A DNA stretch of 64,000 nucleotides, taken from contig CAZLVS010000002.1 in assembly GCA_964563085.1 (NCBI GenBank), positions 64,091 to 128,090 on the forward strand. Direction: 5' to 3'. Source of the stretch: an uncultured Ignavibacteria bacterium. GTDB taxonomy: Bacteria; Zixibacteria; MSB-5A5; UM-FILTER-46-8. Below the pieces are notes generated by a model. The model was not told where the DNA came from and searched no databases. It saw nothing but the letters and a program-made list of their open reading frames with translations. Below are positions 8,134 through 62,327 of this stretch, in pieces. Both the position numbers and the translations under genes were made by a program. Every line of letters begins with the position of its first letter. The stretch's first letter is position 1.

Positions 8134-8149
8134 TATAGCGTTATACTCC

Positions 8150-8182
8150 TTGAAAACGGACCGTGTATTATGGTCCGTTTTC
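8150..8182 (+). terminator. intrinsic terminator
   Basis: AAAACGGACC-GTGTATTAT-GGTCCGTTTTCTGTGG hairpin plus U-run, 17 bp after the stop. Confidence 0.55.
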
Positions 8183-8450
8183 TGTGGACAGTACTTGAGT
8201 AATACCAATCTATACATTAACAGCCGTAGAAAAGCTTCCGAATTGCGCGAAGCTTGAGGAGCAATCCGATAACATAAATCTCCTAATGTAAATGATCTAC
8301 TCAGAAAAGCATCTTCCCCGTTTTTCAACAATTCCTCTAAGAATCGAACCTTTCGCAAACTTTACCTATGTGACAGACAGAGCATTCGAAAAATGTGAGA
8401 AGAGAGTTTAAACAAGACTAATTCGCAAATCAATCAAAGGAGAAACAAAA

Positions 8451-10901: not shown

Positions 10902-13103
10902 CTATGGGAACATTCGCCTCAACTGCGAGCCTGTTAACCCGGTCTTACCGCTATCGGATACCTGAACGATAAGGCTGCCGATTTTAAGCCGGACGTTATC
11001 ACCCACAGCGAGATATTTACCCAATTCGGGGGCTCTGTCAAGTATGGTGAAGTATGCGTCGGAGAACCTTTCTATTTCAATGTCGAATTCATCCGATTCG
11101 ATATCCCCCTGCACCCAAATATCGTCACCCGCTTTGAAGAAAGCTTTGGAGCCGACCTGGATCAGTAATGTATCGACCGCTTTGGATACGCCCGGCTGAT
11201 TGAACTCAGTCCCATCCATAAAACCCGCCCGGTTGGATCCCCGCTGCGCTTTCAATGCCATGGATTGACCGACCGCTCCCTTTCCGGTCTGTTCACTCCT
11301 CATCGCATCCAAATTATATGCCAGCTGCTTTTTCGCCATTGATTTAGCTCGCTCGGATGAACTCGCCCGGATGTAATCATCCCCGATGACGAGGAATGAA
11401 GTGTATTCCGTCACGATTCCGTATTTCTTGGAAAGGTCGATAACCTCATTGACCAGCTCCTCTGACTCGCCGTGCAATCTTAACTGCTGCAGAAGATATC
11501 CGATACGTCTGTTAGCCCAGAGAAGAGCGATATAGCTGTCATCATCGGAACCATCGGTGAATTCAACCGGAAAATGATACTTGGCTTGTTCCTTTCCCCT
11601 TTGACCGGTAATCTTCGCCGATGACTTACCCTCGCCTTTAAATCTACCGGATACGATTATTTCGGAACCATAAAAGAGATCGGGAAACGGATCCGGATAC
11701 AGGTTCTCAAAATCGATATCTTCGAAATCGATCTCAATATCGGCAAGCGCGGGACGGCTGATTCTGGTTGCCAATCTGGATACTTTCACTTCGATATCCT
11801 CATCAGGTTTCACATAATCCGGCAGCCCCCCATTCTCTTGCGCTAGTCTGTCCAGCAGGTGTGCGTTGACATCATACCCGACGCCGAATGCGAAGAGTTT
11901 AGCGCGGCTTTCGTTCTTTTCGGTGGTATTCTCGATGATCTGGTTGATATCGGTATTGCCCACCGAGGGAAGTCCATCGGTCAGGAAGATAATATAAGTC
12001 GGGTCGCCATCCGGCTCAATAATCTCGCATCCGACTTCCAATGCTTCATAAATATTTGTGCCGCCGTTAGCGTCCAAGCCCTGGACATATTCAATCAATT
12101 CCTCGATATTATCCTTACCCGCAGATATCATACGTTCGGAGAATGCGCTGACGTTATCGGAGTAGTCGAGCAGAGCAAACTCATCGCCGTCGTGCAGACT
12201 TAACAAGCAAAATTCCAGAGCGTCTTTAGCTTGTTTAATCTTCTCTCCCTTCATACTGCCGGATCTATCCAGGATGAAGATTACATTTTTATCAATCTTA
12301 CGGCTTTGCTTCTCCAGCGGTGGAGAAAGTATTCCAAAAAAGTGTCCGTATCGTTCACCCGGTTGGCGATAGCTTTTAAGGTAAAATCCAAAGTCCTTCT
12401 TCTGGCGAGCAAAGTAGAGAATAAAATCCCTTCTGGGTTTAACATTTTCCTCGTAATATTTGGCGGTTAGCTCCCTTTCGCTCTTTCTGTTTACTTCAAT
12501 CTGGTGCGTGGGACTATACACGGCAGTAATATCTTCGAAGGACCTGACATTCACTTCGACCTTACAGTCCTGCAGTTTCGAGCGGGAGTATTTTTCAGTA
12601 TTCAGAGGATAAAGATACTCAACAGCGCCGAAATCGGACTGCAGTGTTTGTTTGTATTCGATTTGAACCCGCACTTCCCCGTGAGCAGGTACGGGATAAA
12701 CACGCACGCGATACATCCCCCGGTCGGCATACTCCAGCAACGCCGGATCTTTTCGCTTGCGCACTATATCACGATAAATTTTTCGCGCTTGTTCGGCATC
12801 GAGCAATTCCGCTTCCATTTTACGGCCCCCAACCGTCATCGTAAAATCATCGATAGCGGCGTTTTCCGGAATCGGAAAGATGTAGTCCGCTTCGAGTTCC
12901 AAATGATGCGGATTGACGAAAACCTGGTCGATGCGGGTGATTGCCACCGGATCATCGATCTCCACATCGACATGATGATACTTTACATCCACAAGTGGTC
13001 TTTCCGGTAAGATCGGACTGGGGCGCGGTATAAGGACGCCATCGGCTAAAGCCGAACCTGCCAGCAAAATAGCCAGCATCATTGCGGTTAGTAGTTTGTT
13101 CAT
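10902..13103 (-). CDS. secreted VIT + von Willebrand factor A domain protein
   Basis: Signal peptide MNKLLTAMMLAILLAGSALA. N-terminal VIT-like region. vWA with MIDAS VIFILDRSGSM...TNIYEAL...IIFLTDG. Confidence 0.75.
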   Translation of the reverse strand: MNKLLTAMMLAILLAGSALADGVLIPRPSPILPERPLVDVKYHHVDVEIDDPVAITRIDQVFVNPHHLELEADYIFPIPENAAIDDFTMTVGGRKMEAELLDAEQARKIYRDIVRKRKDPALLEYADRGMYRVRVYPVPAHGEVRVQIEYKQTLQSDFGAVEYLYPLNTEKYSRSKLQDCKVEVNVRSFEDITAVYSPTHQIEVNRKSERELTAKYYEENVKPRRDFILYFARQKKDFGFYLKSYRQPGERYGHFFGILSPPLEKQSRKIDKNVIFILDRSGSMKGEKIKQAKDALEFCLLSLHDGDEFALLDYSDNVSAFSERMISAGKDNIEELIEYVQGLDANGGTNIYEALEVGCEIIEPDGDPTYIIFLTDGLPSVGNTDINQIIENTTEKNESRAKLFAFGVGYDVNAHLLDRLAQENGGLPDYVKPDEDIEVKVSRLATRISRPALADIEIDFEDIDFENLYPDPFPDLFYGSEIIVSGRFKGEGKSSAKITGQRGKEQAKYHFPVEFTDGSDDDSYIALLWANRRIGYLLQQLRLHGESEELVNEVIDLSKKYGIVTEYTSFLVIGDDYIRASSSERAKSMAKKQLAYNLDAMRSEQTGKGAVGQSMALKAQRGSNRAGFMDGTEFNQPGVSKAVDTLLIQVGSKAFFKAGDDIWVQGDIESDEFDIEIERFSDAYFTILDRAPELGKYLAVGDNVRLKIGSLIVQVSDSGKTGLTGSQLRRMFP

Positions 13104-13279: not shown

Positions 13280-15982
13280 ATGTATTCAATGTCTCGATCG
13301 AATTGCGATTCACAGCATAGCATTGGGCGGGATGGGAAAGAGAAATTTGAGCGACTCTTCAAATTATACGGAACCTGCTTCTTACTGCTGATACTCTCTC
13401 TTCTCATTCTCCCAAACTTCGTTCTTTCAGAGACGAAAATCGAAAAGCCCCGCAAGAAAATATCTGCTGTTCGTATCACTCAATATCCTCCGCAAATCGA
13501 TGGAAAGTTGAACGACCCCGCCTGGGATAAGGCGGTTTTTGCGTCTGGTTTCGTCCAGAAAGAGCCTGTAGAAGGGGCGGCGCCGACGGAGAGAACCGAA
13601 GTGGGAATACTCTACGATAACCACGCAATCTACGTGGCAGCGAGGATGTATAGCGATAATCCCGGTGAAATACCGTTGTATTTGAATCGCAGGGACAACC
13701 ACGGGAAGACCGAGCAGTTCGCAATTTCTTTGGATACCTATCACGATCGACGGACCGCTTACGGTTTTGGAGTAACGGCGTCCGGTGTCCGATTCGATCG
13801 TTACTACCCGAAGGATGTGGAATGGAATAAGGACTACTCTTTTGATCCGGTATGGGATGCGGCTGCATCGGTCGACTCGTTGGGATGGACTGCCGAGATG
13901 CGCATACCGTTCTCACAGCTTCGGTTCAATGATGAACATGAGCAGGTTTGGGGAATAAATCTCAACCGATGGATACCCTCAAGATTTGAAGATGATTACT
14001 GGATAGTAGTCCCCAAGGATTCCACTGGCTGGGCGTCGCGATTTGGTGAGTTGGTGGGAATTGAAGGTATCAATCCCTCTCGCCGGCTTGAGGTTCTGCC
14101 CTATTTCGCATTGAATTCTCATTTAACCGATGATTACGCAGAGGACGATCCATTCCATGATGGCAGCGACTTTTCAACCAATATCGGCGGCGATCTGAAA
14201 ATGGGATTGGGTCCCAACCTTACACTGGAAGCCACTATCAATCCGGATTTCGGGCAGGTGGAAGCGGACCCCGCAGTCGTGAATCTCTCTGCTTACGAGA
14301 CTATTTTTTCAGAGAAGAGACCGTTCTTTATAGAGGGTAACCAACTGCTCAGCTCAAGTGTAGGTTTTTACTCCAGACGTATCGGAGCCCCGCCGCACGG
14401 AAGCGCCTCGGGCGATTATGTGGATATGCCGAATAATACTACAATATTGGGAGCCGCAAAGATGTCCGGGCGGTTGAGTTCCGGGCTTTCGATTGCGGCT
14501 CTGGCAGCGGCAACGGAGCGGGAATATGCGAGCACATACGATACCACGACCGGAGTGAAAAGTAAGGTGGAGGTGGAACCGGCTGCGTTTTTTGGTGTAG
14601 CCAAGCTGCAACAGGAATTTGGAGAAGCGCGTTCCACCATCGGATGGCTCATCACCGGAGTTGCGCGGGATATATCCCATGAAGATCCTTTAGCCTCGCA
14701 ACTACGAGATAAAGCCTTAACCAGCGCAGTGGACTACAACCTCCGTTTCCGCGGAGGAGATTATTCACTCAGCGGTTTATTAGGTGTGAGTCATATAAGC
14801 GGAAGCAAACAGGCTATGCTGAGTACTCAAAAATCCAGTGTTCATTACTACCAAAGACCGGATGCGGATCATGTTACGCTGGATTCCAGTAGAACATCCC
14901 TGTCGGGCTTCGGATTCTCTGTCAACCTGAGCAGGAACAGCGGTAAACATTGGTTGTGGAATGGCGGTTTTACGGCTGAATCTCCGGGGCTGGATTTGAA
15001 TGATGCGGGGGTGCTGCAATCGGCCGATGATATCGGCGCAACTTACCGGGTGACTTATCGGGAGAATACACCCGGCAGTCTGTTTTACAGATACGACATA
15101 GACTTTTATACCGAATCGGGCTGGAATTTCGGAGGTGTCAGGCAATACACATACGGGGGTATAAATCCCGCATTCACCTGGAATAATTATTGGGAGACAT
15201 ATCTTGATCTGGGTTATGGGCTCCGTGCCGTCAGCGATGACTGGACCCGCGGAGGTCCGTTAATGGGCAAACCCCGCGGAGGATGGCTCGGAATCGGAAT
15301 TCACAACAGTTTCAGCGCTGATAGGCGCTATGGATTTGATTATGAGAATTCCTGGGATGAATTCGATGGTTACCATCATGAGTTTGAACTGAGTTTTTCT
15401 TCCCGCATCGGCGAAGCCCTGGAGATATCGATTAATCCCGAATATTACTTTTCCGAGAACTCCCGACAATATGTCGCCACACTGGACAACGGTTCCCCTT
15501 CGACTTACGGCAAGCGTTATATATTCGCGCGTATTGATAGAAATGAACTCTCGGCTCAGTTCCGCATTAATTATTTCTTCACGCCGGATTTAAGTCTGGA
15601 AATATATGCCCAACCGTTCGCATCCAGCGGCGACTATTTCGATTATGGCGAACTCCCTGCGCCGCGGAGCAGAGATATGAGGATATATGGCGAAGACGGC
15701 ACGACCATCATACGGACAAACGGGTTATACACGGTAACCGACGGCAACGAGACCTTCACCGTTCCCGACCGGGATTTCAGCTATCTTTCCTTCCGCAGTA
15801 ATATTGTCTTAAGATGGGAATTCAAACCGGGGAGCACCCTATATCTGGTTTGGCAGCAGAATCGAGATGAGGACAGGGATACAGATAAGGAAATCCGCAT
15901 CAAATCCCTGTGGAATTCGGTAAAATCCGACGGTGAGGATTTCATCGCTCTTAAAGTGAGTTACTGGATACCTGTGATGTAA
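13280..15982 (+). CDS. CBM9-like/DUF5916 family outer-membrane-associated protein
   Basis: 900 aa. Signal-like N-terminus. LNRRDNHGKTEQFAISLDTYHDRRTAYGFGVTASGVRFD region typical of the Bacteroidota DUF5916 hydrolase-like family. Confidence 0.65.
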   Translation: MYSMSRSNCDSQHSIGRDGKEKFERLFKLYGTCFLLLILSLLILPNFVLSETKIEKPRKKISAVRITQYPPQIDGKLNDPAWDKAVFASGFVQKEPVEGAAPTERTEVGILYDNHAIYVAARMYSDNPGEIPLYLNRRDNHGKTEQFAISLDTYHDRRTAYGFGVTASGVRFDRYYPKDVEWNKDYSFDPVWDAAASVDSLGWTAEMRIPFSQLRFNDEHEQVWGINLNRWIPSRFEDDYWIVVPKDSTGWASRFGELVGIEGINPSRRLEVLPYFALNSHLTDDYAEDDPFHDGSDFSTNIGGDLKMGLGPNLTLEATINPDFGQVEADPAVVNLSAYETIFSEKRPFFIEGNQLLSSSVGFYSRRIGAPPHGSASGDYVDMPNNTTILGAAKMSGRLSSGLSIAALAAATEREYASTYDTTTGVKSKVEVEPAAFFGVAKLQQEFGEARSTIGWLITGVARDISHEDPLASQLRDKALTSAVDYNLRFRGGDYSLSGLLGVSHISGSKQAMLSTQKSSVHYYQRPDADHVTLDSSRTSLSGFGFSVNLSRNSGKHWLWNGGFTAESPGLDLNDAGVLQSADDIGATYRVTYRENTPGSLFYRYDIDFYTESGWNFGGVRQYTYGGINPAFTWNNYWETYLDLGYGLRAVSDDWTRGGPLMGKPRGGWLGIGIHNSFSADRRYGFDYENSWDEFDGYHHEFELSFSSRIGEALEISINPEYYFSENSRQYVATLDNGSPSTYGKRYIFARIDRNELSAQFRINYFFTPDLSLEIYAQPFASSGDYFDYGELPAPRSRDMRIYGEDGTTIIRTNGLYTVTDGNETFTVPDRDFSYLSFRSNIVLRWEFKPGSTLYLVWQQNRDEDRDTDKEIRIKSLWNSVKSDGEDFIALKVSYWIPVM

Positions 15983-32886: not shown

Positions 32887-35673
32887 ATGAAGCTACTTAC
32901 ACAATCCTTAACCATTTCTTTCATCTGTCTTTTCTTGATTCTGGCGATCAATCCACCAGCAAATAGCAGCACAATATATGTCGAGGGAGATGTCTGGGGG
33001 CAATGGAGCGCGGATACGGTGTTAGTTACCGATTCTATTCGTGTTCCCACTGATAGCAATCTTATTATCGATCCGGGAACCAAAGTCCTTTTCTGGGCGC
33101 ATGATAAATTCGTGGTGGATAGCGCTGCTACGTTGATTGCGGTTGGAACGGAAATGGATTCCATCCGGTTCGACGAATATTTCTCGGGGAATAAATGGCA
33201 TGGGATAAGATTTCTCAATGCCTCAGATTCGTGCATATTGGAATATTGTTGCCTAATACACGGCAAGGCTTCAGGTATCGGCGATGACGCTTATGGCGGC
33301 GCCATCTTTTGCAGTCATTCCGATATTACCATTAAAAATTGCCTTATTGATAGATGCTCCGCAAAAGAACGCGGAGGCGGCATTTCTTGTATACAGTCTA
33401 GCCCTATGATATCCGACAACATTATCATTAGGAACAACATCCTTAGAAACGAAGCCAATGACGGCGGGGGCGGGATTTATTGTGGAATTAATTCCAATCC
33501 CTCCATTATGGGGAACACGATTGGTGCAAATGAAACCGGCGGAGACAGCTATGGTGGCGGCATTTATTGTAGCAATTCCAGTCCGATAATCGATGGAAAT
33601 AACATTACTGGAAATAGAGGATACAACGGCGGTGGCGGCATTTGTTGCGAGGAAAATTCAAATCCAACGATAAATGATAATGTTATCAGTGAGAACTGGA
33701 CCGTATATTTTCAAGGTGGCGGCGGAGTGTACTGTATCAACTCCAGCCCCTCAATTACCGGAAATACCATCAGCGGAAACTGGACTGATGCCTATTATGG
33801 TTATGGAGGCGGAATCTCCTGCCAAAGTAACTCCAGTCCTACAATTACCGGCAACACCGTTGATAATAATTCAGCATCGAATTATGGAGGCGGAATCTCC
33901 TGCAGGGCTGACTCCCACCCCATAATTAGTGGCAACATCATAAATAGCAATTCTGTAGTGAATTACAGCGGTGGTGGTATTTACTGCTATAATTCCTGTC
34001 CCACAATCAGCGATAACACCCTTGACGGGAATAGCGCGAACCGGGATGGCGGAGGAATTTATTGCGACATTGGGTCCAACGCAAATATTGACGGGAATTA
34101 CTTCGTTGCGAATTCAGCGGCTGATTATGGCGGCGGGATTCGGACTTCGGGTAGTTCGCCGGTAATAAGTAACAATTTCATCACCTCCAATATTGCCGAT
34201 GACGGCGGAGGGATATCCGTAAGTTCGTATCATGGAATTGTTAACTATAATACTATTTCAGATAATACCGCCGGATCTAACGGTGGTGGAATTCATATTA
34301 CTAATTCCGGTTCTAATCTTATTTTGTTGAATAATTCAGTTATCGAAAACATAGCCGGTTCTGACGGTGGTGGGATTTACCTGTCCGCGTCCGATCCCCG
34401 GATCATCAATTCAATAATATTTTTAAATACTGCGACCAACGGTCCCCAAATCTGGCCCACTAACGGTTCCGATCCGGATGTGACCTATTCCTGTATTGAA
34501 GGCTACTGGCCCGGCGAGGGCAACATATTCGATGATCCCTTATTCCGCGATCCCGATAACGGGGATTATCACCTCCAGGATAATATCAACTGCGGCGATA
34601 CGCTTTACTCTCCCTGTATCGATGCCGGGGATCCCGCAATACTCGATGCGACACTGAGCTGTGAATGGGGACTGGGCGAGAGAATTAGCGACATCGGCGC
34701 CTACGGTGGCGGCGACAGGACTCCTACTATCAGCAATATGAGCCGCAATCCGGAGAATCCCGTCGAGGGCGAAGAGTGCGAGATCTCGGCAATTATAATT
34801 GATGAAACCGGATGGATCGACCATGCTGGTCTATATGCGGACATGGGTTCAGGTTTCTACCTATTTCCGATGAGTAATGTTGCGGATTCGTTTTTCGCCA
34901 CCATCCCCGGACTGCCCAAAGACACTACGGTCTTCTACTATATAACAGCGGTGGACGAAATCGGAGACTCCACCGTTAGCGACACTCTCTCATACACTGT
35001 CCTGCCCGCATTATGCTGCGACGTGGACATGGAAACCGATAGTTATCCGATCAATGTTCCTCCCGGCGGCTCCTTCGGACTCACCGGCATTATCGGAAAC
35101 CCTTCGTTGGAACCGATTATTACAGATGTCTGGGTAGGAGTAAGAAACGGCAGCGCTTTTATACAGCTTTACGACTTTCGGAATATTATTCTCAATGCTG
35201 GTCAGTATGTGTCGGCTCATTTAGTACAGAACGTACCGGTCTCTGCCGATCCCGGAGTTTATGGATACGCCGCCTTTTGCGGGGACTTCGATGGGTGGTC
35301 GGTATGCGATTCCGCTTCATTTGAATTCACCATAACCGGAGCGCCATTAGCGCGCGGCGCAATGGAATGGACGCTGGAAGGAGGCTGGGGAGGTGTTGCC
35401 GAAAAGCCGACAGATTACGCCCTTATAGCTAATTACCCCAATCCATTCAACGCCGCGACCACTATCGTTTATCAGCTTCCCGAATCCGGAGATGTAAATC
35501 TGAGCGTTTATAATATCGCCGGACAACGAGTTGAGACCTTGGTGAGCGGTTTGATGGAAACGGGGAATCACAGAGCTAATTGGGATGCGTCTAATTACTC
35601 CAGCGGTATATATTTCTACAAACTTACCGCCGGGGAGAAAGTGTTCACCAGGCGGATGACATTATTGAAATAG
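32887..35673 (+). CDS. secreted parallel beta-helix repeat protein with conserved pre-CTD module and T9SS sorting domain
   Basis: Signal peptide. Many NxIxGNxAxxGGGIYC repeats. Module DMETDSYPINVPPGGSFGLTGIIGNP. CTD NYPNPFNAATTIVYQL...GIYFYKL...RRMTLLK. Confidence 0.85.
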   Translation: MKLLTQSLTISFICLFLILAINPPANSSTIYVEGDVWGQWSADTVLVTDSIRVPTDSNLIIDPGTKVLFWAHDKFVVDSAATLIAVGTEMDSIRFDEYFSGNKWHGIRFLNASDSCILEYCCLIHGKASGIGDDAYGGAIFCSHSDITIKNCLIDRCSAKERGGGISCIQSSPMISDNIIIRNNILRNEANDGGGGIYCGINSNPSIMGNTIGANETGGDSYGGGIYCSNSSPIIDGNNITGNRGYNGGGGICCEENSNPTINDNVISENWTVYFQGGGGVYCINSSPSITGNTISGNWTDAYYGYGGGISCQSNSSPTITGNTVDNNSASNYGGGISCRADSHPIISGNIINSNSVVNYSGGGIYCYNSCPTISDNTLDGNSANRDGGGIYCDIGSNANIDGNYFVANSAADYGGGIRTSGSSPVISNNFITSNIADDGGGISVSSYHGIVNYNTISDNTAGSNGGGIHITNSGSNLILLNNSVIENIAGSDGGGIYLSASDPRIINSIIFLNTATNGPQIWPTNGSDPDVTYSCIEGYWPGEGNIFDDPLFRDPDNGDYHLQDNINCGDTLYSPCIDAGDPAILDATLSCEWGLGERISDIGAYGGGDRTPTISNMSRNPENPVEGEECEISAIIIDETGWIDHAGLYADMGSGFYLFPMSNVADSFFATIPGLPKDTTVFYYITAVDEIGDSTVSDTLSYTVLPALCCDVDMETDSYPINVPPGGSFGLTGIIGNPSLEPIITDVWVGVRNGSAFIQLYDFRNIILNAGQYVSAHLVQNVPVSADPGVYGYAAFCGDFDGWSVCDSASFEFTITGAPLARGAMEWTLEGGWGGVAEKPTDYALIANYPNPFNAATTIVYQLPESGDVNLSVYNIAGQRVETLVSGLMETGNHRANWDASNYSSGIYFYKLTAGEKVFTRRMTLLK

Positions 35674-50871: not shown

Positions 50872-52242
50872 ATGAAACTATTCGACACGCATGCGCATCT
50901 GGATTTTCCTCAATACGATAATATTCGTAAGGAAATCATAAAGGAGGCATTTGATTCCGGTCTGGACGGTATAATTAATATTGGGGTGGATATGGAATCC
51001 TCGGAAAAATCGATACAACTGGCGGATAGTTATGAAAATATCTGGGCGGCGGTCGGATTTCATCCGCACGATGCCAGCAAGCTGGGAAGGAGCAATTTCT
51101 ACAGATTAGAGAGGTTGGCGAAATCAAATAAAGTTGCAGCTATTGGTGAAACCGGACTGGACTTCTATCGCGATCTCAGCCCGCGCAAGGAGCAATATAA
51201 AGCGTTCGAAATGCAGATAGATTTGGCGAAGCGATTGGATTTACCGCTGGTTATTCATATACGCGATGCCTATGATGAGGCGATTGAGGCGCTGGAAACC
51301 GCCGAGGCAAGCGCAGTCGGCGGAGTCCTTCATTGTTTTGCAGGTGAAGAAAGACATATCGATAAGGCTAAGGAATTGGGATTTATCTTCTCCTTTAATG
51401 GCACCATTACATACAAAAATTCCAAAGCCCCGCGTATGGCGGCTTACGCCGGACTTGAAAATATTATAATCGAAACAGATTGCCCGTATCTCGCTCCTCA
51501 AGCTTACCGGGGTAAACTGAACAAACCATCCTATGTAAGTTATGTTGCCGATAAACTCTCGGAGATATTCGACCGTTACAGCCCCGAAGATATCGCTCGC
51601 ATAACTTATGATAATGCCACTGAGCTATTCAAAATAGGAACCGATGCCGGTACGATTGCCTATGAAATCAAAGGAAACCTGTATCTGAATATTACCAACA
51701 GGTGTAGTAATAGCTGCTTCTTCTGTGCCGGAAACAGCGATTACACGGTTAGAGGCAATTATCTTAAACTAAATCGAGAGCCCTCCGTGGAAGAAATCAA
51801 AAATGCCGTCGGCGACATTTCCGGCTACGAAGAAATTGTCTTTTGCGGCTATGGAGAACCGACCTATCGGATGGAGATTATGCTGGAGGCTGCCGGGTAT
51901 CTGAAATCAAAAGGGGCGCAATTGAGATTAAATACTAACGGACAGGGCTCGCTATTAAACAATCGCGATATTACCGATGACCTCGCTAAGTATTTCGATA
52001 GAGTGTCAATCAGCATAAATGCGCCGACCAAGGAGCAGTACAATAAAATATGCAAACCGGAATCTCCCGAAAAAGCGTTCGATTCAGTTGTGGATTTTAT
52101 CCGTGATTGTCGCGGAAAAATCCCTGAGGTAATCGTATCGGTAGTCGATATTCCCAAATTAGATATAAGCGAGTGCCAGAGGTTTGCAGATGAGTTGGGA
52201 GTTCAATTTCGCTTAAGACCACTAAATAAGTTATCGAGATAA
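50872..52242 (+). CDS. TatD-family metal-dependent hydrolase fused to a C-terminal radical SAM domain
   Basis: N-terminal MKLFDTHAHLDFPQYD TatD signature (~255 aa). C-terminal CSNSCFFC (CxxxCxxC) plus GYGEPT SAM-binding motif. Confidence 0.8.
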   Translation: MKLFDTHAHLDFPQYDNIRKEIIKEAFDSGLDGIINIGVDMESSEKSIQLADSYENIWAAVGFHPHDASKLGRSNFYRLERLAKSNKVAAIGETGLDFYRDLSPRKEQYKAFEMQIDLAKRLDLPLVIHIRDAYDEAIEALETAEASAVGGVLHCFAGEERHIDKAKELGFIFSFNGTITYKNSKAPRMAAYAGLENIIIETDCPYLAPQAYRGKLNKPSYVSYVADKLSEIFDRYSPEDIARITYDNATELFKIGTDAGTIAYEIKGNLYLNITNRCSNSCFFCAGNSDYTVRGNYLKLNREPSVEEIKNAVGDISGYEEIVFCGYGEPTYRMEIMLEAAGYLKSKGAQLRLNTNGQGSLLNNRDITDDLAKYFDRVSISINAPTKEQYNKICKPESPEKAFDSVVDFIRDCRGKIPEVIVSVVDIPKLDISECQRFADELGVQFRLRPLNKLSR

Positions 52243-52250
52243 GTATATAA

Positions 52251-53039
52251 TTGAGCAAAAAATCGCTTTCCCAGTATTTCCTGATCAATTATGAGATAGC
52301 GCGGGATATGGCTGAGATCGCTGCGCGTTATTCGCCAGATGAAAATGTTGTTGAGATAGGCGGCGGCAGGGGGATACTCACCAGGGCTCTTCTGCAGCAG
52401 GGATTAAGCGTAAGAACTGTTGAAATAGACCCGAAGTTAGCGGATTACCTTGCGGAGAGCTATCGCAATAATACCAGCCTTACCGTTGTGAATGAAGATA
52501 TATTAAAACTGAATCCGGCTGCCGTCTCAAAAAACGGTGATATTTCATTATGCGGCAATATACCTTATCATATATCGGGTTTAATTCTCAGATGGATCTC
52601 CGAGAACTCCCGGCATATCTCACATGTGGTTTTAATGGTGCAAAAGGAGGTCGGTTTGAGGATTTCCGGCAGGCCCGGGGATAGAGAATTCGGCGCGCTT
52701 AGTATAATCCTGGGTATTGATTATGATACCGAGTATTTGTTTGATGTGAATAAAGAGAATTTTAAACCGCAGCCAAAGGTAGATTCGGCTGTGGTGCGGC
52801 TTGGAAGGAAGCCGGAACCTATGATATGCGCTGACGATAGAGCTGCATTCATTATGCTGGTTAAACGAGCGTTTTCGGCAAGAAGGAAAAAGATAATTAA
52901 CAGTCTTAAGGGGTATCGAGGTTTAAATACGGAGAGGCTATCCGAATTCTTTAATAGGTGCGGTTTGGATTCAAACCTCCGTCCCGATAAAATATCTATT
53001 TCGGAATATATAAAGCTTTATTATGTTATCCATCGGTGA
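52251..53039 (+). CDS. rsmA: 16S rRNA (adenine1518/1519-N6)-dimethyltransferase
   Basis: SLSQYFL (GQNFL-like). SAM motif VVEIGGGRGILT. TTG start 8 nt after the upstream stop. Confidence 0.8.
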   Translation: MSKKSLSQYFLINYEIARDMAEIAARYSPDENVVEIGGGRGILTRALLQQGLSVRTVEIDPKLADYLAESYRNNTSLTVVNEDILKLNPAAVSKNGDISLCGNIPYHISGLILRWISENSRHISHVVLMVQKEVGLRISGRPGDREFGALSIILGIDYDTEYLFDVNKENFKPQPKVDSAVVRLGRKPEPMICADDRAAFIMLVKRAFSARRKKIINSLKGYRGLNTERLSEFFNRCGLDSNLRPDKISISEYIKLYYVIHR

Positions 53040-53067
53040 TAACCTCTCAGATAAACATAGATAAATT

Positions 53068-54927
53068 ATGACAAAGACTGCCGCAGCCGCTTTTTCACTT
53101 ATTCTGTGCTTCTTCCTCACTTCGGGCGATTTACTGAGTTCCTCATTAACCGCAATATTCAACCAGGATAATCAGACATACAGATGGGACACTTCGCTTC
53201 TCTACAACTACAATCCGAGTTCAGATTTTACCCTCGAGCTTTCCACAAACACCCAATCGACTCTTATAAAAAGATCACTATTAGCCGACGGGGCGAATCA
53301 ATGGCAGGAAAACCGGGACGCGAGGGCAAGGGGTTTCTACGATTTCAGTGATAATTTCGGGATCACCGCCGAAATTTTCCGGGGTTACTCCGCCCTCGGG
53401 GACAGGAATATAGACGATTCGGAGATATTAACCGGAGCCGACTACAGACCGAATGATTGGCTTTCGTTTCAATATTTACTTGGGGCGATGATCACTTCGC
53501 GGGATGAACCAATCGGCAGCCGTATAGATAAGGGAGCAAAAATGAGTTGGAAGGGAGTTCTGGATAAGCAGATTCTGGGTGCGGACAAATTTAATATTCA
53601 GCTCGGTATCGAGGAGGAGATTTTCCGTGCGATCCCCTCCAATCAGTTCGCTTTAAGCAGCGTCTATCAGAAGAGTTTTAGCACCGGGGACAGTCTTAGT
53701 CTGCAATTCGAGAGTCTTAACGCAAAGAAGAGGTATTATTCCTCATCTCTGGAGTTCGAGGAAACCAACACACAGAAGAAGCGCGAGTACGATTTTAACG
53801 GAAAGGTGTTCAAACATCTCTTTCTCGATCTGAATTTGATTACCGAAGGAGATGCAGCCTTTCAGGAGTATTTATACGAGACAACGGATACTGCCAGCGG
53901 TTTTATTAACATCACGAATCGTGACAATGCCAGGCTTTCTCAGAATGTCATCTTTAAATTGCAAAGGATTTTCAGACCATACTCGATGCATATTCAAACA
54001 TCCGTATCATACAGATACAACGGCTACGATGAGGATTTCGGGCAGGATGACCGCGATGAGAAATCAGCATTCGGGGAATTCGGTTCCTCCGTTACGGTTC
54101 TTATTACCGAGAGCGATACGGTTGCATCCGAATATTTCGCAGCGGTGCGTTCCTTTTATCATCCGAATGAATTCGCGCCAAATCTGGACAGGGATGTTGT
54201 AAGTCAGCTTTGGAACCTGCGATACTCGCGAATCTGGAGCGAATATCTAAATAGCTCAATTCAATTCAGCTACAGGAATTATCATCAAGTATACATTTAC
54301 GGAGAGCGTTCCGCTGATAACAACCGCAATTATACCTATCTGCTGGCGCCTAAAATTAGCTGGTATATATCGCCTCGGCTAATCGTCTCACAGGCATTCG
54401 AAATACAAGCCAACTATATAACCTATGACTACGAAAGGGCTATTCTGAGTTCTCGAAACCGGATATTCAGAAGGGGCGATAACAGAAGTAGAATAACATT
54501 CATCACGGGTAGAAATCTCACCGTTAACCTTGAATATGGATATCGATACGAAGATTATGGACAGTTGGTTTACCAGGAGCAATGGCAGCAGCTAACCAGC
54601 TGGGACAGGCGAACCCATCTGGGATTTATCGGGTTTGATTATTATCCGGTATCGCATGTAAGGGTGTCGCCGGGATACAGCTTTGATTACAAAAGGGAAT
54701 GGGATCATTCCGAGGAGATAGAAGTCATTGAAAATGATACTACTTACACAAAAGTGAGGACTATGGTGGATCGTCAAGATCAGCGAACCATATTGCTTGA
54801 GGTTGAGTATAAATTCAGTGAGACCGAGCAGCTGCTATTTGGCATCAGTAATCGAATAATTAATGGATGGAGGCGCGGGCATATCCGCGATGAGAATTTT
54901 ACTATTTCTTTAATGAAGTTTTTTTAG
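53068..54927 (+). CDS. putative outer-membrane beta-barrel protein, unknown family
   Basis: Signal peptide. Alternating amphipathic strands. C-terminal ...SLMKFF (terminal Phe). Confidence 0.6.
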   Translation: MTKTAAAAFSLILCFFLTSGDLLSSSLTAIFNQDNQTYRWDTSLLYNYNPSSDFTLELSTNTQSTLIKRSLLADGANQWQENRDARARGFYDFSDNFGITAEIFRGYSALGDRNIDDSEILTGADYRPNDWLSFQYLLGAMITSRDEPIGSRIDKGAKMSWKGVLDKQILGADKFNIQLGIEEEIFRAIPSNQFALSSVYQKSFSTGDSLSLQFESLNAKKRYYSSSLEFEETNTQKKREYDFNGKVFKHLFLDLNLITEGDAAFQEYLYETTDTASGFINITNRDNARLSQNVIFKLQRIFRPYSMHIQTSVSYRYNGYDEDFGQDDRDEKSAFGEFGSSVTVLITESDTVASEYFAAVRSFYHPNEFAPNLDRDVVSQLWNLRYSRIWSEYLNSSIQFSYRNYHQVYIYGERSADNNRNYTYLLAPKISWYISPRLIVSQAFEIQANYITYDYERAILSSRNRIFRRGDNRSRITFITGRNLTVNLEYGYRYEDYGQLVYQEQWQQLTSWDRRTHLGFIGFDYYPVSHVRVSPGYSFDYKREWDHSEEIEVIENDTTYTKVRTMVDRQDQRTILLEVEYKFSETEQLLFGISNRIINGWRRGHIRDENFTISLMKFF

Positions 54928-54939
54928 TAGATTGATGAT

Positions 54940-55554
54940 ATGAGCTTGAGAATACAATCGTTAGTTTTCCTTTTAATATTCTTGCTATCCGTAATAGGAT
55001 GTAAAAATCCCTTCTCTCACCGTTCCAGTGATGAACCTGTGGGGACATCCGGTACCTGGGATTTTCCGGCGGCGCCGGAAATAGTGATAAGCAATCTGCT
55101 TTTCTCATATAATGAGCGGAATATTAATAACTTCCGCCGATGCTTGTCTGATTCCTTTATGTTTTCCGCTTATGAGGATTCAATAGAAGCGGAGCAAAAC
55201 GGCGAGGGATTTCTTTTTCACGGATGGGATGCGGATACAGAGGAATCGGTGACACGACGTATCTTTCAGGCGTTCCCGGCGGGATCAGATTCGCTGCAGA
55301 TGATATTATTAATAGACCTATCATCCAATCCGATCGATGAGATCGATGATTCTACGGCAACCCTGGTCAGAACCTATAACATAACCGCAATAGATTTCAC
55401 ATCCGATGCAACGGATACCTTGGGCGTCGAGGGTGAAGCGACTTTTAAGATGAGCCGGTCAAGCCTGGAGGGCTGGAGCATTTATTTGTGGTCGGATAGA
55501 GCGGCTAAGGGCGTGGATTTCAATTGGGCTGATTTTAAGGCTTTATTTAGGTGA
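54940..55554 (+). CDS. putative lipoprotein (paralog of next gene)
   Basis: Lipobox LLSVIGC. Shares NIxxF..L.P.F.F.YxD pattern with 55551-56111. Confidence 0.6.
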   Translation: MSLRIQSLVFLLIFLLSVIGCKNPFSHRSSDEPVGTSGTWDFPAAPEIVISNLLFSYNERNINNFRRCLSDSFMFSAYEDSIEAEQNGEGFLFHGWDADTEESVTRRIFQAFPAGSDSLQMILLIDLSSNPIDEIDDSTATLVRTYNITAIDFTSDATDTLGVEGEATFKMSRSSLEGWSIYLWSDRAAKGVDFNWADFKALFR

Positions 55555-56111
55555 ATATGTTCCTTCGGCTCCTCTCCATACTGATATTCGCCGCACTGTC
55601 AGCTATCGTTTCGGTTTGTGTTAATCCTTTTTCTCCCCCGGAAGCCGGTTCCGGTTTGTATAAACCGATTGCGGCTCAAAGCGACCCCGATAGCGTTTTG
55701 GCGAACTTTAAATACGCTTATGAAAACCGAGATATAAATATCTATGAACATACGCTGGCGCCGGGATTCGTTTTCGTCTATTACGATCAGGACCTCGAAG
55801 GAAGAATCGAGACAATTACCGTACCGCGTGATGGAATCGGCGGTGATATCTATCGCACGACCGGTTTATTCGAAGCTTTCGATGAGATTCGGCTGGGGAC
55901 CTGGCAGGTTCTGGAAACTGACCCGGAACCCGAGGATCCGCCGGACTGGGAAGCTCGTCAGGTTTTGTTTCACTTATCTTTAAAGGATATAAGCGGCGAT
56001 CTCGGTTATTTACAGATGGAAGCCACCGGCAGAGCCCTATTTAAGTTCGAAAAGGATGAGGGCGGTACCTGGCGTATTATTGTATGGGAAGACCTCTCCA
56101 TCCCAAATTAA
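55551..56111 (+). CDS. putative secreted/lipo-protein (paralog of previous gene)
   Basis: 4-nt overlap with the upstream gene. Signal peptide ending VSVC. Confidence 0.6.
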   Translation: MNMFLRLLSILIFAALSAIVSVCVNPFSPPEAGSGLYKPIAAQSDPDSVLANFKYAYENRDINIYEHTLAPGFVFVYYDQDLEGRIETITVPRDGIGGDIYRTTGLFEAFDEIRLGTWQVLETDPEPEDPPDWEARQVLFHLSLKDISGDLGYLQMEATGRALFKFEKDEGGTWRIIVWEDLSIPN

Positions 56112-56129
56112 GAGGAAAGTCGCAGATAA

Positions 56130-57305
56130 TTGGCTTCGAAAGGGAAAAAGGAAAGTTCATCTAAAGGCAGGATCAGCCGCAAACAGCGGGCGAAGTCTAC
56201 CGGCAGTCTTAGTTGGAAAGTATTTTTCGTCATAATCGCAGCAGCTATATTGTTCGTGGGGACTATCATCCTCCACAAGGATTTAGCCCGCCTTTTCGAT
56301 TCATTAACGGCAGAACGGGCAGGGCAATCAAGTGATTATACGGCGCTTGAGGATGCAATCATGGCTGCTGCGGTCTCATTCGGAATAAATCCGGATAATA
56401 TCCGGGTTAGTTTCTCCGGTCCGGATGAGGATTTAACCGGAGCCAGCAATGATATCAGGATATCGCATTTATATCCCAAAACGCTATTTCATCTCAAACT
56501 CCGCGACAATTTGGTGCCTACCGGTTTTACGATAGAAGATTGTATTGAAAGCAGAAATGGGGATTTTATGACCTTTCAAATCTCTCATCCCGATTTCCGC
56601 GACTATCGTTTCAATTTAATATCGGACCGGTCGGCGAAACCCCAAGCCTCTTATTATTCCGTGATTATCGATCACGTTCAATCACTGCCCTCGGAACAGA
56701 GGGTTAGGTTAGCCGATGATGGGGCATTCTATACGTTCATATTGACTCCCGGTGTAAGAGGATTTACCAAAACCAGACAAGAGCTGGTTTCCAAACAGAG
56801 ACAGATTATATACGAGGTGCCGCTGGAGAGCCGTAAATTTGTTGGATTGATGAATGCCGCCGCTTCGATAGTAGGACTTAGGAGGGTCAGCGATTTGGAA
56901 CAGGCTATGAACACCTTAAAGGGTTTATGCCGGGATTTTAACTATCTTTATGTGCGCGGCAAGGAATGGAACTTGAGCGAAGAGCTGGCAAGGAAATTGG
57001 GCGAGGCTGGATTTGTTATATTCGCCGGTGGAGAACCGGTGAATCGAAAGGAGATCGACATATTCCTGCAAGGCGGCGGCAGGATAGTTAAAACGACCGA
57101 GCGTATGGAAAGCGATTCCCGGGATAAACTTCGCATGGATCTACTCCGATACCACCGCGAAGAACTGCTTTTTAATAATTGGGGTATCATTATTGTAGAA
57201 GCCAATGCCGGTCTGCATGAAAACCTCGGTAATTCCGTTGACTATTTAAACAGATTTAATTGTAAATTAACTCCGATTTCTCAGATTCTTCTGAGGATCG
57301 GATAA
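56130..57305 (+). CDS. membrane-anchored hypothetical protein (basic N-terminus, single TM, large extracytoplasmic domain)
   Basis: MASKGKKESSSKGRISRKQRAK followed by a TM helix FFVIIAAAILFVGTIIL. Confidence 0.6.
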   Translation: MASKGKKESSSKGRISRKQRAKSTGSLSWKVFFVIIAAAILFVGTIILHKDLARLFDSLTAERAGQSSDYTALEDAIMAAAVSFGINPDNIRVSFSGPDEDLTGASNDIRISHLYPKTLFHLKLRDNLVPTGFTIEDCIESRNGDFMTFQISHPDFRDYRFNLISDRSAKPQASYYSVIIDHVQSLPSEQRVRLADDGAFYTFILTPGVRGFTKTRQELVSKQRQIIYEVPLESRKFVGLMNAAASIVGLRRVSDLEQAMNTLKGLCRDFNYLYVRGKEWNLSEELARKLGEAGFVIFAGGEPVNRKEIDIFLQGGGRIVKTTERMESDSRDKLRMDLLRYHREELLFNNWGIIIVEANAGLHENLGNSVDYLNRFNCKLTPISQILLRIG

Positions 57306-57335
57306 TCTTCTATTGAATAATAAGGATAAAAGGAA

Positions 57336-58049
57336 ATGGCGAGATTAAGTATTCGGATCGATGAGATTGCGGCATTGCGGGAGATTGGCGACCGAAAATC
57401 GCCCGATCCGGTCAAGGTTGCGGTTGCCGCTGAAATGTACGGCGCCAATGGGATTACAATCCGTTTGGGCGAAAAGCGCTACTATTCCAAAGAACGCGAC
57501 CTGTTTCTTCTTAAGGATTTGCTGAATATCGGATTGATGCTGGAAATAACTCCCACCGAATCAATGATTGAGCTGGCGCTGAAAGCCAAACCGGAGATAG
57601 TCAATCTTATTCCGGTCAATCAACAAGCTCTGTCAGAAGGGATGGGTCTGGATCTGGAGAACGAGTTCGATCTGATTACCGAAACATCAGCTCGATTGCA
57701 ATTACAGGATATTCTGGTATCACTATTTATCGCCCCCGAAATCGATCAACTGAAAAGAGCGGCTAAAATCAAGGCTGACTACGTTGAATTATCCACAATT
57801 CCCTATGCGATTGCCGATACTGCAGTAAAGGAATCCGAGGAGCTGGAAAGGTTATCATCGATTAGCATGGCAGCATCCAAACTGCAGCTCGGGGTAATGG
57901 GGGGGCGCGGGCTTCGATATGATAACATCAAAGCGGTAGCCGAACTGGGAACTTTCGAAGAATTTATCATTGGCCACTCACTTATGAGCCGAGCTGTATT
58001 TGTAGGTTTAAACCAAGCGATAAAAGACATGGAAAATCTCATCAAATGA
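57336..58049 (+). CDS. pdxJ: pyridoxine 5'-phosphate synthase
   Basis: IRIDEIAALREIGDRKSPDPVKVAVAAEMYGANGITIRLGEKRYYSKERDL matches the PdxJ N-terminal signature. Confidence 0.8.
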   Translation: MARLSIRIDEIAALREIGDRKSPDPVKVAVAAEMYGANGITIRLGEKRYYSKERDLFLLKDLLNIGLMLEITPTESMIELALKAKPEIVNLIPVNQQALSEGMGLDLENEFDLITETSARLQLQDILVSLFIAPEIDQLKRAAKIKADYVELSTIPYAIADTAVKESEELERLSSISMAASKLQLGVMGGRGLRYDNIKAVAELGTFEEFIIGHSLMSRAVFVGLNQAIKDMENLIK

Positions 58050-58186
58050 TTACATAGGGTCTCAAATTGTTCGGCGAGAGCTGAAATATATTTTCAAGCT
58101 GGACAACGCAATTCCTATTGCCTTAATTTCAAAAGCGGTTTAGGTTTAATCCGAGTGGATTTACCAATCGATAATCATAGGATACG

Positions 58187-60401: not shown

Positions 60402-62327
60402 TTACTTAGGTGTCTCACGAAGGAGTTCCTCGTCGGCCTCTTCGGATATTCCCTTATTCAGTTGTTCGCTTTTATCGTCGTTTTCATCGTCGAGGTTTTC
60501 CATTTCGGAGAGGTAATCCAAGTCCTCTTTGGATAGCGCATCCTCCATTTTCTCATCGGTGATCTCGGATTCCTTTCCCCCGGAGCTTTCCCCTTGATTT
60601 TCCGTATTCATCTCAGATTTAGGATCCGCCGAATCCTGTTCAGGGTTTGAAAACAACTCCTCAAGTTCCTCAGAATCAACGTTGGAACTCTCATTTTGCT
60701 CTTGGGCAGTTACTTTGCTTTCACTGTCGGATTGTTCTTCATTGCCCGATGACTCCTCGTTGTCAGCTTTACCTTCAACGCTGCCGATTATATCATCGAA
60801 TTCACCATCCATAAAACTCTTATTATCATTGGCGTCATGCTCCGTTCCATTCCATTCCGGAGTTTGATGAGGCGACTGTTGTTGTGGAGGATACTGTTTT
60901 TGTTTCGCTCGTTCCTGCGATTGGGTTTCATGTTGAGGCTGAGGCTGTTCAGTTTGCTGTGCCGGTTCCCGCTTGAGCGGTTCATTGAGCCCGCTGCTTG
61001 ATGCAAACCGTCTCAGTTCTTCATCCAATGAGTTATCAACCGTATTGGAAAATCCGCCAACCTGATTCAACAGATTAGACACCTGGTCAACATTGTTAAT
61101 AATCTCCTTAAGCTCCTGCCGCGTCTTTTCCACATCTTTTATGCTGGAAGTGATACTGTTGTCGTTTTCCTTCATTATCTCCCTGGTTTCCTCCGCCAAA
61201 CGCAGAGTGAAATAAACCAGTTTTCTTATTTCGTTTTCACCTACTTTTGCGGCTTTTACCGCCAACTCCTGAGCTTCTGCAATCGAGGAGTATGAAATAT
61301 CGGAAGCCGATTTCATCAAACCGGATATCTTGCTGGCATTCCGGTAGGTTTGTACAAATTGCGAGGCAACATCCGAAGTATCCTTAGCGCCGGCAGCCGA
61401 AATTTTGCTAACGGTTTTGCTGAGGTTTTTAATATTATCCGGAGTATTGTGAATCTCATCGGATGATGGTTGCGCCTCCGTTTGGTTTTCTGAGTTCTTA
61501 TCGGCGCTGCGGAGACTGTTTTCTGGGCGATCATAACTCTGCTTTTGTGTTTCGGGTTGAGCGAAGCTGCGAGGGCGCTCCTTTGCGCTTTCACTCTTGG
61601 CGTTACTCATCGCTTTAGGGGGCGTTGACACGGTTTTTGACGAAGGTAGTTTGCCCTTCTTAGGAAGTCTTTTTGATTTGATGCGATTAGATGCGAAAAA
61701 CAGCCCCGCCGCAGCCACAATTGAGACCAACGCAATTATCAACTCAATATTGCGGGCGAAAATTATACTTTCTTTCTCCTTATTGAAATCCGCAATATTC
61801 GCTTGGGCGAAATTGTCCAGCGATTGTCGCAGCTTATTTACGAAACCTGCAATGCTCTTTGATTGAGGTTCCAATTGTGACAGCGAAACCTCCCAGGCTT
61901 TGGTCCGCAGGTTGTTGAAGCTGAAATCCTGAGCTTTCAGATGATTGGTGATAAAAACAGCTACAACCGATTTTATACTATCAATATATCCCCACTGGGA
62001 ACCATCCAGCTTCTCCTCAATACTATAGATCGAATCGAGCAGGTTGTTTTGAAGTATGGTAATTTCTTCGAGATATGTCTGTTTTTCCGGTTGGGAATCT
62101 GCCAGAATATGCTTGTTGACCGTAGCCACGACCTGTTTGGGAGCATGGGAGATATAGTCCAAATGCTGTTTGGTGCTGTCGATATCCTCCTTAACGGTTA
62201 TAATCTGATTATCTACTTGCGATATTCCGCGATTGGATGATACCAAAGCATGTACAACCAGGATTATCGATAACAGCACCAGTAAGGGGGGCAACCAAAT
62301 CTTGAATTCACGCAGTTTACTACTCAT
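60402..62327 (-). CDS. hypothetical bitopic membrane protein with coiled-coil region and long acidic, low-complexity C-terminus
   Basis: TM near residue 15 and near residue 195. Q/E/D/S-rich C-terminal 250 aa. Confidence 0.6.
   Translation of the reverse strand: MSSKLREFKIWLPPLLVLLSIILVVHALVSSNRGISQVDNQIITVKEDIDSTKQHLDYISHAPKQVVATVNKHILADSQPEKQTYLEEITILQNNLLDSIYSIEEKLDGSQWGYIDSIKSVVAVFITNHLKAQDFSFNNLRTKAWEVSLSQLEPQSKSIAGFVNKLRQSLDNFAQANIADFNKEKESIIFARNIELIIALVSIVAAAGLFFASNRIKSKRLPKKGKLPSSKTVSTPPKAMSNAKSESAKERPRSFAQPETQKQSYDRPENSLRSADKNSENQTEAQPSSDEIHNTPDNIKNLSKTVSKISAAGAKDTSDVASQFVQTYRNASKISGLMKSASDISYSSIAEAQELAVKAAKVGENEIRKLVYFTLRLAEETREIMKENDNSITSSIKDVEKTRQELKEIINNVDQVSNLLNQVGGFSNTVDNSLDEELRRFASSSGLNEPLKREPAQQTEQPQPQHETQSQERAKQKQYPPQQQSPHQTPEWNGTEHDANDNKSFMDGEFDDIIGSVEGKADNEESSGNEEQSDSESKVTAQEQNESSNVDSEELEELFSNPEQDSADPKSEMNTENQGESSGGKESEITDEKMEDALSKEDLDYLSEMENLDDENDDKSEQLNKGISEEADEELLRETPK

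Follow-up and report, generated by a model that had tools for sequence, protein, structure and literature searches.

What kind of envelope system is encoded by four tightly packed genes whose products carry no recognisable family signature? The genes in question occupy positions 53068 to 57305 of a 64,000-nucleotide stretch of contig CAZLVS010000002.1 (assembly GCA_964563085.1), titled as from an uncultured Ignavibacteria bacterium and placed by GTDB in the Zixibacteria; this whole 64-kb stretch is referred to here as the window, and coordinates are positions within it. An earlier note, made from the letters alone, read the genes as a four-gene operon encoding an outer-membrane beta-barrel with a signal peptide and a C-terminal MKFF, two tandem paralogous lipoproteins (here L1 and L2, for the first and second lipoprotein gene of the module), and a 391-residue protein with a basic N-terminus, one transmembrane helix and a periplasmic domain, and could assign a motif to none of them. 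The four plus-strand genes do have the sizes and positions given there, with gaps of 12, -4 and 18 bp; a confident AlphaFold model agrees with the barrel, lipoboxes and pairwise comparison agree with the paralogous lipoproteins, and hydropathy agrees with the topology of the last protein, while searches of all four against Pfam and NCBIfam gave nothing at E<=1 beyond noise. The phylum-wide conservation of gene order makes it very probable that the barrel, L1 and L2 are one functional module. As to what this module does, the explanation we prefer, while granting it somewhat less than even chances, is that the three proteins would form a stoichiometric outer-membrane complex in which lipoproteins of NTF2-like fold occlude or cap the barrel lumen, making a gated conduit for hydrophobic or amphipathic cargo.

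Both the building and the use of the diderm envelope depend centrally on large outer-membrane barrels that work with lipoprotein partners, such as LptDE, BAM, SusCD and MtrCAB, and every well-understood example comes, to our knowledge, from cultured phyla. A large barrel with lipoprotein partners is a well-known kind of system; the particular combination of approximately 28 strands, twin NTF2-like lipoproteins and a housekeeping operon is not. If the complex exists, it would represent a new way of plugging or gating a giant barrel, and a candidate for an unassigned envelope function in these lineages. Even without a complex, the barrel family merits a name and a model, being invisible to current annotation: it is single-copy, is covered by no database model, is predicted to have more strands than fit any solved structure's count, and sits in housekeeping operons of several uncultured phyla of the Fibrobacteres-Chlorobi-Bacteroidetes (FCB) group.

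A wide outer-membrane barrel without a plug

The first protein begins with a hydrophobic signal peptide and ends in a phenylalanine, the last residue of the MKFF terminus. Its AlphaFold2 model, built with 46 homologs, is confident (predicted local distance difference test (pLDDT) score 86.2, predicted template-modelling score (pTM) 0.70). From residue 26 up to the terminal Phe it is beta structure throughout, and it has no N-terminal, plug or inserted globular domain and no connection longer than 14 residues. DSSP assigns 29 strand elements to this model, of which two (residues 419-426 and 429-435) lie only two residues apart, each of them shorter than a membrane-spanning strand; from these assignments we infer that the two are one kinked strand, giving approximately 28 strands in total. 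An even count of 28 fits a closed barrel, since both termini would be periplasmic. On this model the first protein is a plug-less, short-looped outer-membrane beta-barrel of an unannotated family. Solved large barrels are filled by a plug domain or by a partner protein, and the lumen of a barrel this wide and plug-less would be expected to need filling as well.

Foldseek comparison with solved structures found no template-modelling score (TM-score) of 0.5 or above. The structurally nearest solved barrel was MtrB (PDB 6r2q_B, TMq 0.49), which is itself a sheath for a partner protein, and LptD scored 0.26-0.33. Searches of PDB sequences with the barrel, by phmmer and with a profile, returned nothing meaningful, and a Pfam scan of 10 distant barrel relatives gave sub-threshold noise only. 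In the searchable literature, 28 strands are ascribed to no outer-membrane barrels other than SlpA orthologues from Thermus and Meiothermus, and there as a prediction (bioRxiv 10.1101/2022.05.18.492506). SlpA of the Deinococcus-Thermus group (28-30 strands) is comparable in strand number, but forms trimers, encloses a plug of its own and carries SLH and coiled-coil domains, in contrast to the bare barrel described here; it was not among the structural matches listed for our protein. The window encodes another large predicted outer-membrane barrel, a 900-residue protein with CBM9 and DUF5916 regions (13280-15982, plus strand), to which the barrel of the module is unrelated (hhalign probability 0.3%).

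Paralogous lipoproteins with an NTF2-like fold

The lipobox of L1 reads VIG before Cys21, and among 43 relatives this cysteine never varies and the K-N-P-F after it is constant or almost so. In L2 the cysteine, Cys23, is conserved in the L2 family, is preceded in this genome by VSV, with an atypical valine at position -1, and is followed by V-N-P-F. Both proteins are lipoproteins by these lipoboxes, from which their lipidation is predicted. BLASTP aligned L1 with L2 over approximately 190 residues at 25% identity (E = 6e-12), and phmmer with either protein retrieves orthologs of the other, the two sets of hits having 33 in common, which identifies the two as paralogs. L1 has an NTF2-like fold, an alpha+beta cone in which a curved antiparallel sheet packs against three helices, and by homology L2 is predicted to share it. 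The sensitive searches proposed in the earlier note brought no well-known family for the barrel and, for L1 and L2, this relationship at the level of the fold; apart from it, and from a tentative link of the fourth protein to YibQ, all four proteins fall outside described families.

The segment of approximately 25 residues that follows the cysteine of L1 is nearly invariant (fully so at C21, N23, P24, F25, R28, S30, P33, G38, T39, P43 and P46), yet the monomer model leaves it without structure (pLDDT 53-59), a combination typical of linkers that bind and fold against another protein. Conservation is also high over the whole of both lipoproteins: among approximately 40 distant Zixibacteria, median identity is 44% for L1 and 50% for L2, the most conserved gene of the module, compared with 35% for rsmA, 41% for pdxJ and 28% for the barrel, the least conserved of the genes compared.

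The NTF2 cone typically holds hydrophobic ligands. MlaC, which acts in envelope lipid traffic, contains an NTF2-like domain (PMC12153054). L1 and L2 reached the hidden Markov model (HMM) of no member family of the NTF2-like superfamily (DUF4440, SnoaL and CaMKII-association-domain-like families, and the MlaC domain), and they differ from that superfamily in being lipid-anchored, in their conserved C-x-N-P-F linker and in being encoded in tandem after the gene of a giant barrel. We found no described precedent for a lipid-anchored NTF2-like tandem pair in such a position, nor any description of this gene cluster in the literature.

Gene order is conserved throughout the Zixibacteria

Scanning a single representative genome for each GTDB species yielded 46 loci, all from Zixibacteria. 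The order tatD/radical-SAM, rsmA, barrel, L1, L2 is found in every informative locus among these, at barrel identities of 26 to 51%, and recurrence of one gene order in 46 species-level genomes is far beyond what chance would give. Start and stop codons overlap in many loci (e.g. spacings of -8, -4, -4 and +2 in locus L002), and three complete chromosomes (CP070742.1, CP070813.1 and CP070839.1) each have one locus. The synteny that the earlier note had asked of relatives is therefore present for barrel, L1 and L2 across the phylum, and for the fourth gene in only approximately 26 loci.

A possible gated conduit for hydrophobic cargo

These features can be combined in a model in which the conserved N-terminal C-x-N-P-F linkers of L1 and L2 would dock onto the barrel and their NTF2 domains, of approximately 150 residues, would occlude or cap a lumen that is otherwise wide open. 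Analogy would be with LptE inside LptD, with the plug of TonB-dependent receptors, and with MtrA and MtrC at MtrB. Because NTF2 cones bind ligands, and because the operon, from rsmA to pdxJ, is of a housekeeping kind, the cargo may be a hydrophobic or amphipathic component of the envelope such as a lipid, glycolipid or lipoprotein, which would be likelier than a cargo of the type IX secretion system (T9SS) or a nutrient. The fourth, inner-membrane protein would be an accessory periplasmic partner, possibly with a degenerate YibQ-type fold, in part of the phylum.

A bolder proposal is that the barrels of the Zixibacteria, KSB1 and Latescibacterota represent an undescribed and vertically inherited class of giant translocon of approximately 28 strands, which in the Zixibacteria would work with a heterodimer of NTF2-like lipoproteins as gate and cargo-handling subunits. 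We regard this as quite unlikely on present evidence. Were it true, it would be a new machine of envelope biogenesis, for example for export of lipid, glycolipid or surface lipoproteins, without a counterpart among Bam, Lpt, Lol, Tam and Slam.

Evidence that weighs against a complex

Several observations count against a barrel plugged by L1 and L2, and the first comes from outside the Zixibacteria. A HMMER profile search for the barrel family returned 640 cluster representatives, each of approximately 600-650 residues, and 328 reached E<=1e-10; those distant relatives that are named are each a 'hypothetical protein' of KSB1 or Latescibacterota. In the 85 non-Zixibacteria loci examined, the genes upstream of the barrel are eno (43 loci), ftsB (42) and DUF502 (32), in the order eno-ftsB-DUF502, and a gene for an RsbW-like HATPase_c_2 protein of approximately 145 residues lies directly downstream in 72 of the 85, at a median gap of 22 bp; this housekeeping context differs from that of the Zixibacteria and is conserved to the same degree. 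No open reading frame (ORF) resembling L1 or L2 was found near the KSB1 and Latescibacterota barrels, though these are of equal length, and the barrel is evidently not universally dependent on L1 and L2 unless its partners elsewhere are non-homologous or distally encoded. Mirror-tree analysis showed no specific co-variation and was uninformative, with partial correlations of 0.39 for barrel and L1 and 0.37 for barrel and L2, no higher than the 0.40 of the control pair of barrel and rsmA. An enzymatic role would explain the very high conservation of L1 and L2 just as well, and the identity of the cargo is a matter of pure inference. Finally, the polar motifs that are invariant across the whole barrel family (NDRDEL, ERSANNNWNR, ANYxxYDFE, RSxxFR and EDxGxLxW, with D374, D376, S415, N418, D454, R468 and G498 among the invariant residues) most likely lie, assuming the usual topology, at the extracellular ends of strands 18-24, and this placement suggests a functional site on the surface side better than a periplasmic plug.

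The distribution and the mirror-tree result are compatible with there being no physical complex at all, the barrel being a stand-alone housekeeping protein of several FCB candidate phyla and L1 and L2 being enzymes or binding proteins of the periplasmic face that were recruited to its operon in Zixibacteria. Many NTF2-like proteins are enzymes, which would suit such a role, and the barrel's quite different genomic context in the other phyla suits it too. It is less easily reconciled with the strict adjacency and frequent translational coupling of the three genes across the loci fetched, with the conserved unstructured linker of L1, which suggests a binding partner, or with a plug-less barrel of approximately 28 strands, which would on its own be an open hole. 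We consider this explanation unlikely.

Unusually, genes for an outer-membrane barrel and for a cytoplasmic kinase of the partner-switching kind are closely paired in the KSB1-like branch (L052, L053, L056, L057 and L059-L138). The RsbW-like gene (an anti-sigma kinase) is there sometimes followed by a STAS gene.

The position of the invariant motifs would also fit a different arrangement of the same proteins, in which surface-exposed L1 and L2 would form a lid on the outer side of the barrel, where they would bind a substrate that is hydrophobic or a small molecule, as an uptake channel in the style of SusCD or BtuB-BtuG but without the plug of a TonB-dependent receptor. The ligand-binding character of NTF2 cones is compatible with this arrangement, as is membership of the FCB group, in which surface lipoproteins are common, and the presence of T9SS cargo genes in the window; SusC/SusD and BtuB-BtuG are, moreover, also encoded as a barrel beside its lipoprotein partner or partners, and in the same superphylum. 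Resemblance to these systems is limited in other respects. SusC and other TonB-dependent receptors have a PF07715 plug within a 22-strand PF00593 barrel, whereas the present barrel has no plug, TonB box or TonB_dep_Rec signature, and SusD and BtuG are of TPR and beta-propeller fold rather than NTF2-like. Nutrient-uptake loci are also unlike the rsmA and pdxJ housekeeping context, and no regulator or catabolic gene is co-conserved in the Zixibacteria loci. The C-x-N-P-F that begins at the lipidated cysteine differs from the acidic lipoprotein export signal of Bacteroidota, which is a further point against surface exposure. A lid on the outer face is, in our estimation, improbable, and we retain as our tentative preference a lumen occluded or capped by L1 and L2.

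Comparison with LptDE and other envelope machines

The earlier note compared the arrangement to trans-envelope machines, naming Bam, Lpt and Tol, or to an accessory module of the T9SS. Lpt is brought to mind by the gene neighbourhood. The E. coli operon lptD-surA-pdxA-rsmA also combines the gene of a large barrel with rsmA and a gene of the pyridoxal phosphate (PLP) pathway, and in the present locus rsmA is upstream of the barrel and a PLP-synthesis gene downstream. LptD-LptE resembles the present system also in architecture, with a very large barrel (26 strands in LptD) and a lipoprotein of approximately 170-190 residues that fills part of its lumen. An exporter of lipopolysaccharide (LPS) or glycolipid, with the barrel in the place of LptD and L1 and L2 in that of LptE, is nevertheless very unlikely. 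LptD (PF04453 with OstA_N, PF03968) has an N-terminal beta-jellyroll which receives LPS from LptA, and for which the present barrel, of approximately 28 rather than 26 strands, has no equivalent; the barrel has no match to the LptD or OstA_N families and no detectable sequence relationship to E. coli LptD (hhalign probability 2.6%), and the TM-scores given above are only around 0.3. In place of a single LptE (PF04390) there are two lipoproteins of NTF2-like fold, with neither the LptE fold nor a match to its HMM. A Latescibacteria-like contig (L055) has the pair rsmA-barrel and, 3 kb away, a canonical LptE gene (11777-12289 of that contig, minus strand), so that the Lpt lipoprotein and the barrel family coexist in at least one lineage. 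Identity of the barrel with LptD itself, a candidate prompted by the rsmA and pdx neighbourhood, is rejected on the results of hhalign, by structure and by the fold of the lipoproteins.

The remaining comparisons, with a T9SS accessory module, a Bam- or Tol-like trans-envelope machine or an MtrB-like porin-cytochrome conduit, we take together as highly improbable. In their favour, MtrB scores highest in the global structural comparison, the window contains T9SS cargo genes, and in one relative a gene for SprA lies approximately 6 kb away. Such cargo genes are simply frequent in these genomes, and none of the genes co-conserved with the module is of T9SS, Omp85/POTRA, Tol or cytochrome type. 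The statement that the locus sits among T9SS cargo genes holds in that four Por_Secre_tail genes are found within the 64 kb, but these are scattered and the immediate neighbours are housekeeping genes; a T9SS accessory role finds no support in Pfam and NCBIfam matches, none of which is to a core or accessory component such as SprA/Sov, PorV, PorP, PorK-N, PorU or PorZ, or in any T9SS component within the conserved neighbourhood. The barrel has no PF01103 or PF07244 match and does not have the POTRA plus 16-strand architecture of the Omp85 family (BamA and TamA). Unlike MtrCAB and PioB, it has no PF11854 (MtrB_PioB) match and no multiheme cytochromes are encoded beside it, its neighbours being tatD, rsmA and pdxJ; the CxxCH motif is present in none of the four proteins. 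The suggestion of a trans-envelope arrangement is weakened, in addition, by the dispensability of the inner-membrane partner described below.

An accessory inner-membrane protein in part of the phylum

The fourth protein has a basic N-terminus of 29 residues, which here includes the motif R-I-S-R-K-Q-R, followed by a hydrophobic segment at approximately residues 30-48 and then by approximately 340 residues. These features support a bitopic protein, anchored in the inner membrane by one predicted transmembrane helix and with a periplasmic body. Direct search with this protein found only five close relatives, while an iterative HMM over the syntenic loci revealed a collinear gene for a protein of 381-407 residues directly after L2 in approximately 26 loci. 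In approximately 20 others (approximately 40% of informative loci) the gene is absent and pdxJ follows L2 directly. The fourth gene is, by this distribution, an accessory one, found in part of the phylum.

The family is highly divergent, with identity of only 13-17% between its two sub-clades. The features kept are a cytoplasmic R-[IV]-S-R-x-x-R, the transmembrane helix and W-P-x-x-[LF]-P, and in the family alignment only R17, R20 and P116 are invariant. One of 24 members (L025) matches PF04748, the 'divergent polysaccharide deacetylase' family that includes YibQ, over positions 8-200 of 212 (E 9.7e-5), with a score of 22.0 bits where the gathering threshold is 27.5, and hhalign places the family collinear with E. 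coli YibQ over 165 columns, at a probability of 3.6%. The protein of the window itself has no PF04748 match, E. coli YibQ found no match by phmmer among all ORFs of the loci, and phmmer and profile searches of PDB sequences with the fourth protein gave nothing meaningful. YibQ also has an N-terminal transmembrane helix and a periplasmic domain of approximately 200 residues, and the order of motifs is collinear; in contrast to YibQ, the fourth protein has an extra domain of approximately 100 residues preceding this region, and lacks the acidic and histidine motifs. In the hhalign alignment 'IDDFG', 'HLPM' and 'NNHMGS' of YibQ, residues that we take to be catalytic, are not kept. It is possible that the body of the fourth protein is a degenerate YibQ-like domain.

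Genomic context and other genes of the window

The module does not stand alone. Seven co-directional genes, from the tatD/radical-SAM fusion to pdxJ (50872-58049), are separated by gaps of 30 bp or less (Table 1). The gap between rsmA and the barrel gene is 28 bp here, and the two genes overlap in many relatives, including L002; in many loci the next gene after L2, or after the fourth gene, is pdxJ. The barrel gene is probably co-transcribed with rsmA and pdxJ. The operon proposed in the earlier note is upheld in the synteny of barrel, L1 and L2, while as a free-standing set of four genes it gives way to a larger unit of seven in which these are embedded.

Table 1. Features of the barrel locus and of related genes in the window
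Feature	Position	Strand	Description
tatD/radical-SAM fusion gene	50872-52242	+	456 residues; Pfam TatD_DNase 3.8e-75, Radical_SAM 4.3e-19; context, outside the envelope module
rsmA/ksgA	52251-53039	+	16S rRNA dimethyltransferase; TIGR00755 1.2e-64
Barrel gene	53068-54927	+	619 residues; predicted outer-membrane beta-barrel of approximately 28 strands, unannotated family
L1	54940-55554	+	204 residues; predicted lipoprotein, C-K-N-P-F linker and NTF2-like domain
L2	55551-56111	+	186 residues, GTG start; L1 paralog, C-V-N-P-F, predicted NTF2-like by homology
Fourth gene	56130-57305	+	391 residues, TTG start; predicted bitopic inner-membrane protein (hydropathy)
pdxJ	57336-58049	+	PF03740 4.5e-64; last gene of the co-directional cluster; context
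Terminator-like hairpin	58070-58085	+	Consensus scan, weak evidence; just 3' of pdxJ
T9SS C-terminal-domain (Por_Secre_tail) cargo genes	5332-8133, 8451-10697, 32887-35673, 59566-60384		

Genes called independently on a public contig with an identical barrel protein (L001) are the same except for the start of L2, which is ambiguous: GTG at 55551 gives 186 residues and a 4-bp overlap with L1, and ATG at 55557, two codons downstream and used in the public call, gives 184 residues and a gap of +2. The hairpin after pdxJ, which may be the end of the transcription unit, is the sole plus-strand terminator-like hairpin outside coding regions, though a consensus match of this kind is weak evidence. 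A gene for a LuxR-type response regulator comes after pdxJ. Promoter matches were no more frequent in the window than in shuffled sequence, and its 64 kb contain neither a tRNA gene nor, at the gathering threshold, a member of any Rfam family.

The TatD-radical-SAM fusion is kept upstream of rsmA, at approximately 47% identity, in all Zixibacteria loci examined. In Zixibacteria bacterium SM1_73 (L042) the barrel gene, at 7001-8774 of its contig, is split into overlapping ORFs of 7001-7894 and 7887-8774, by a frameshift or an assembly error. We note that eleven contigs with the Zixibacteria-type cluster (L009, L013-L015, L020, L026, L038, L040, L044, L049 and L051) are titled 'uncultured Ignavibacteria bacterium' at NCBI, probably a taxonomic mislabel by the submitting pipeline. 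Elsewhere in the window, the minus strand encodes a 992-residue TPR-repeat protein with a C-terminal CHAT (caspase-like) domain (884-3862), and a protein of 641 residues (60402-62327) with one N-terminal transmembrane segment, a weak sub-threshold match to methyl-accepting chemotaxis protein (MCP) signalling domains and a long acidic low-complexity tail rich in Q, E and S.

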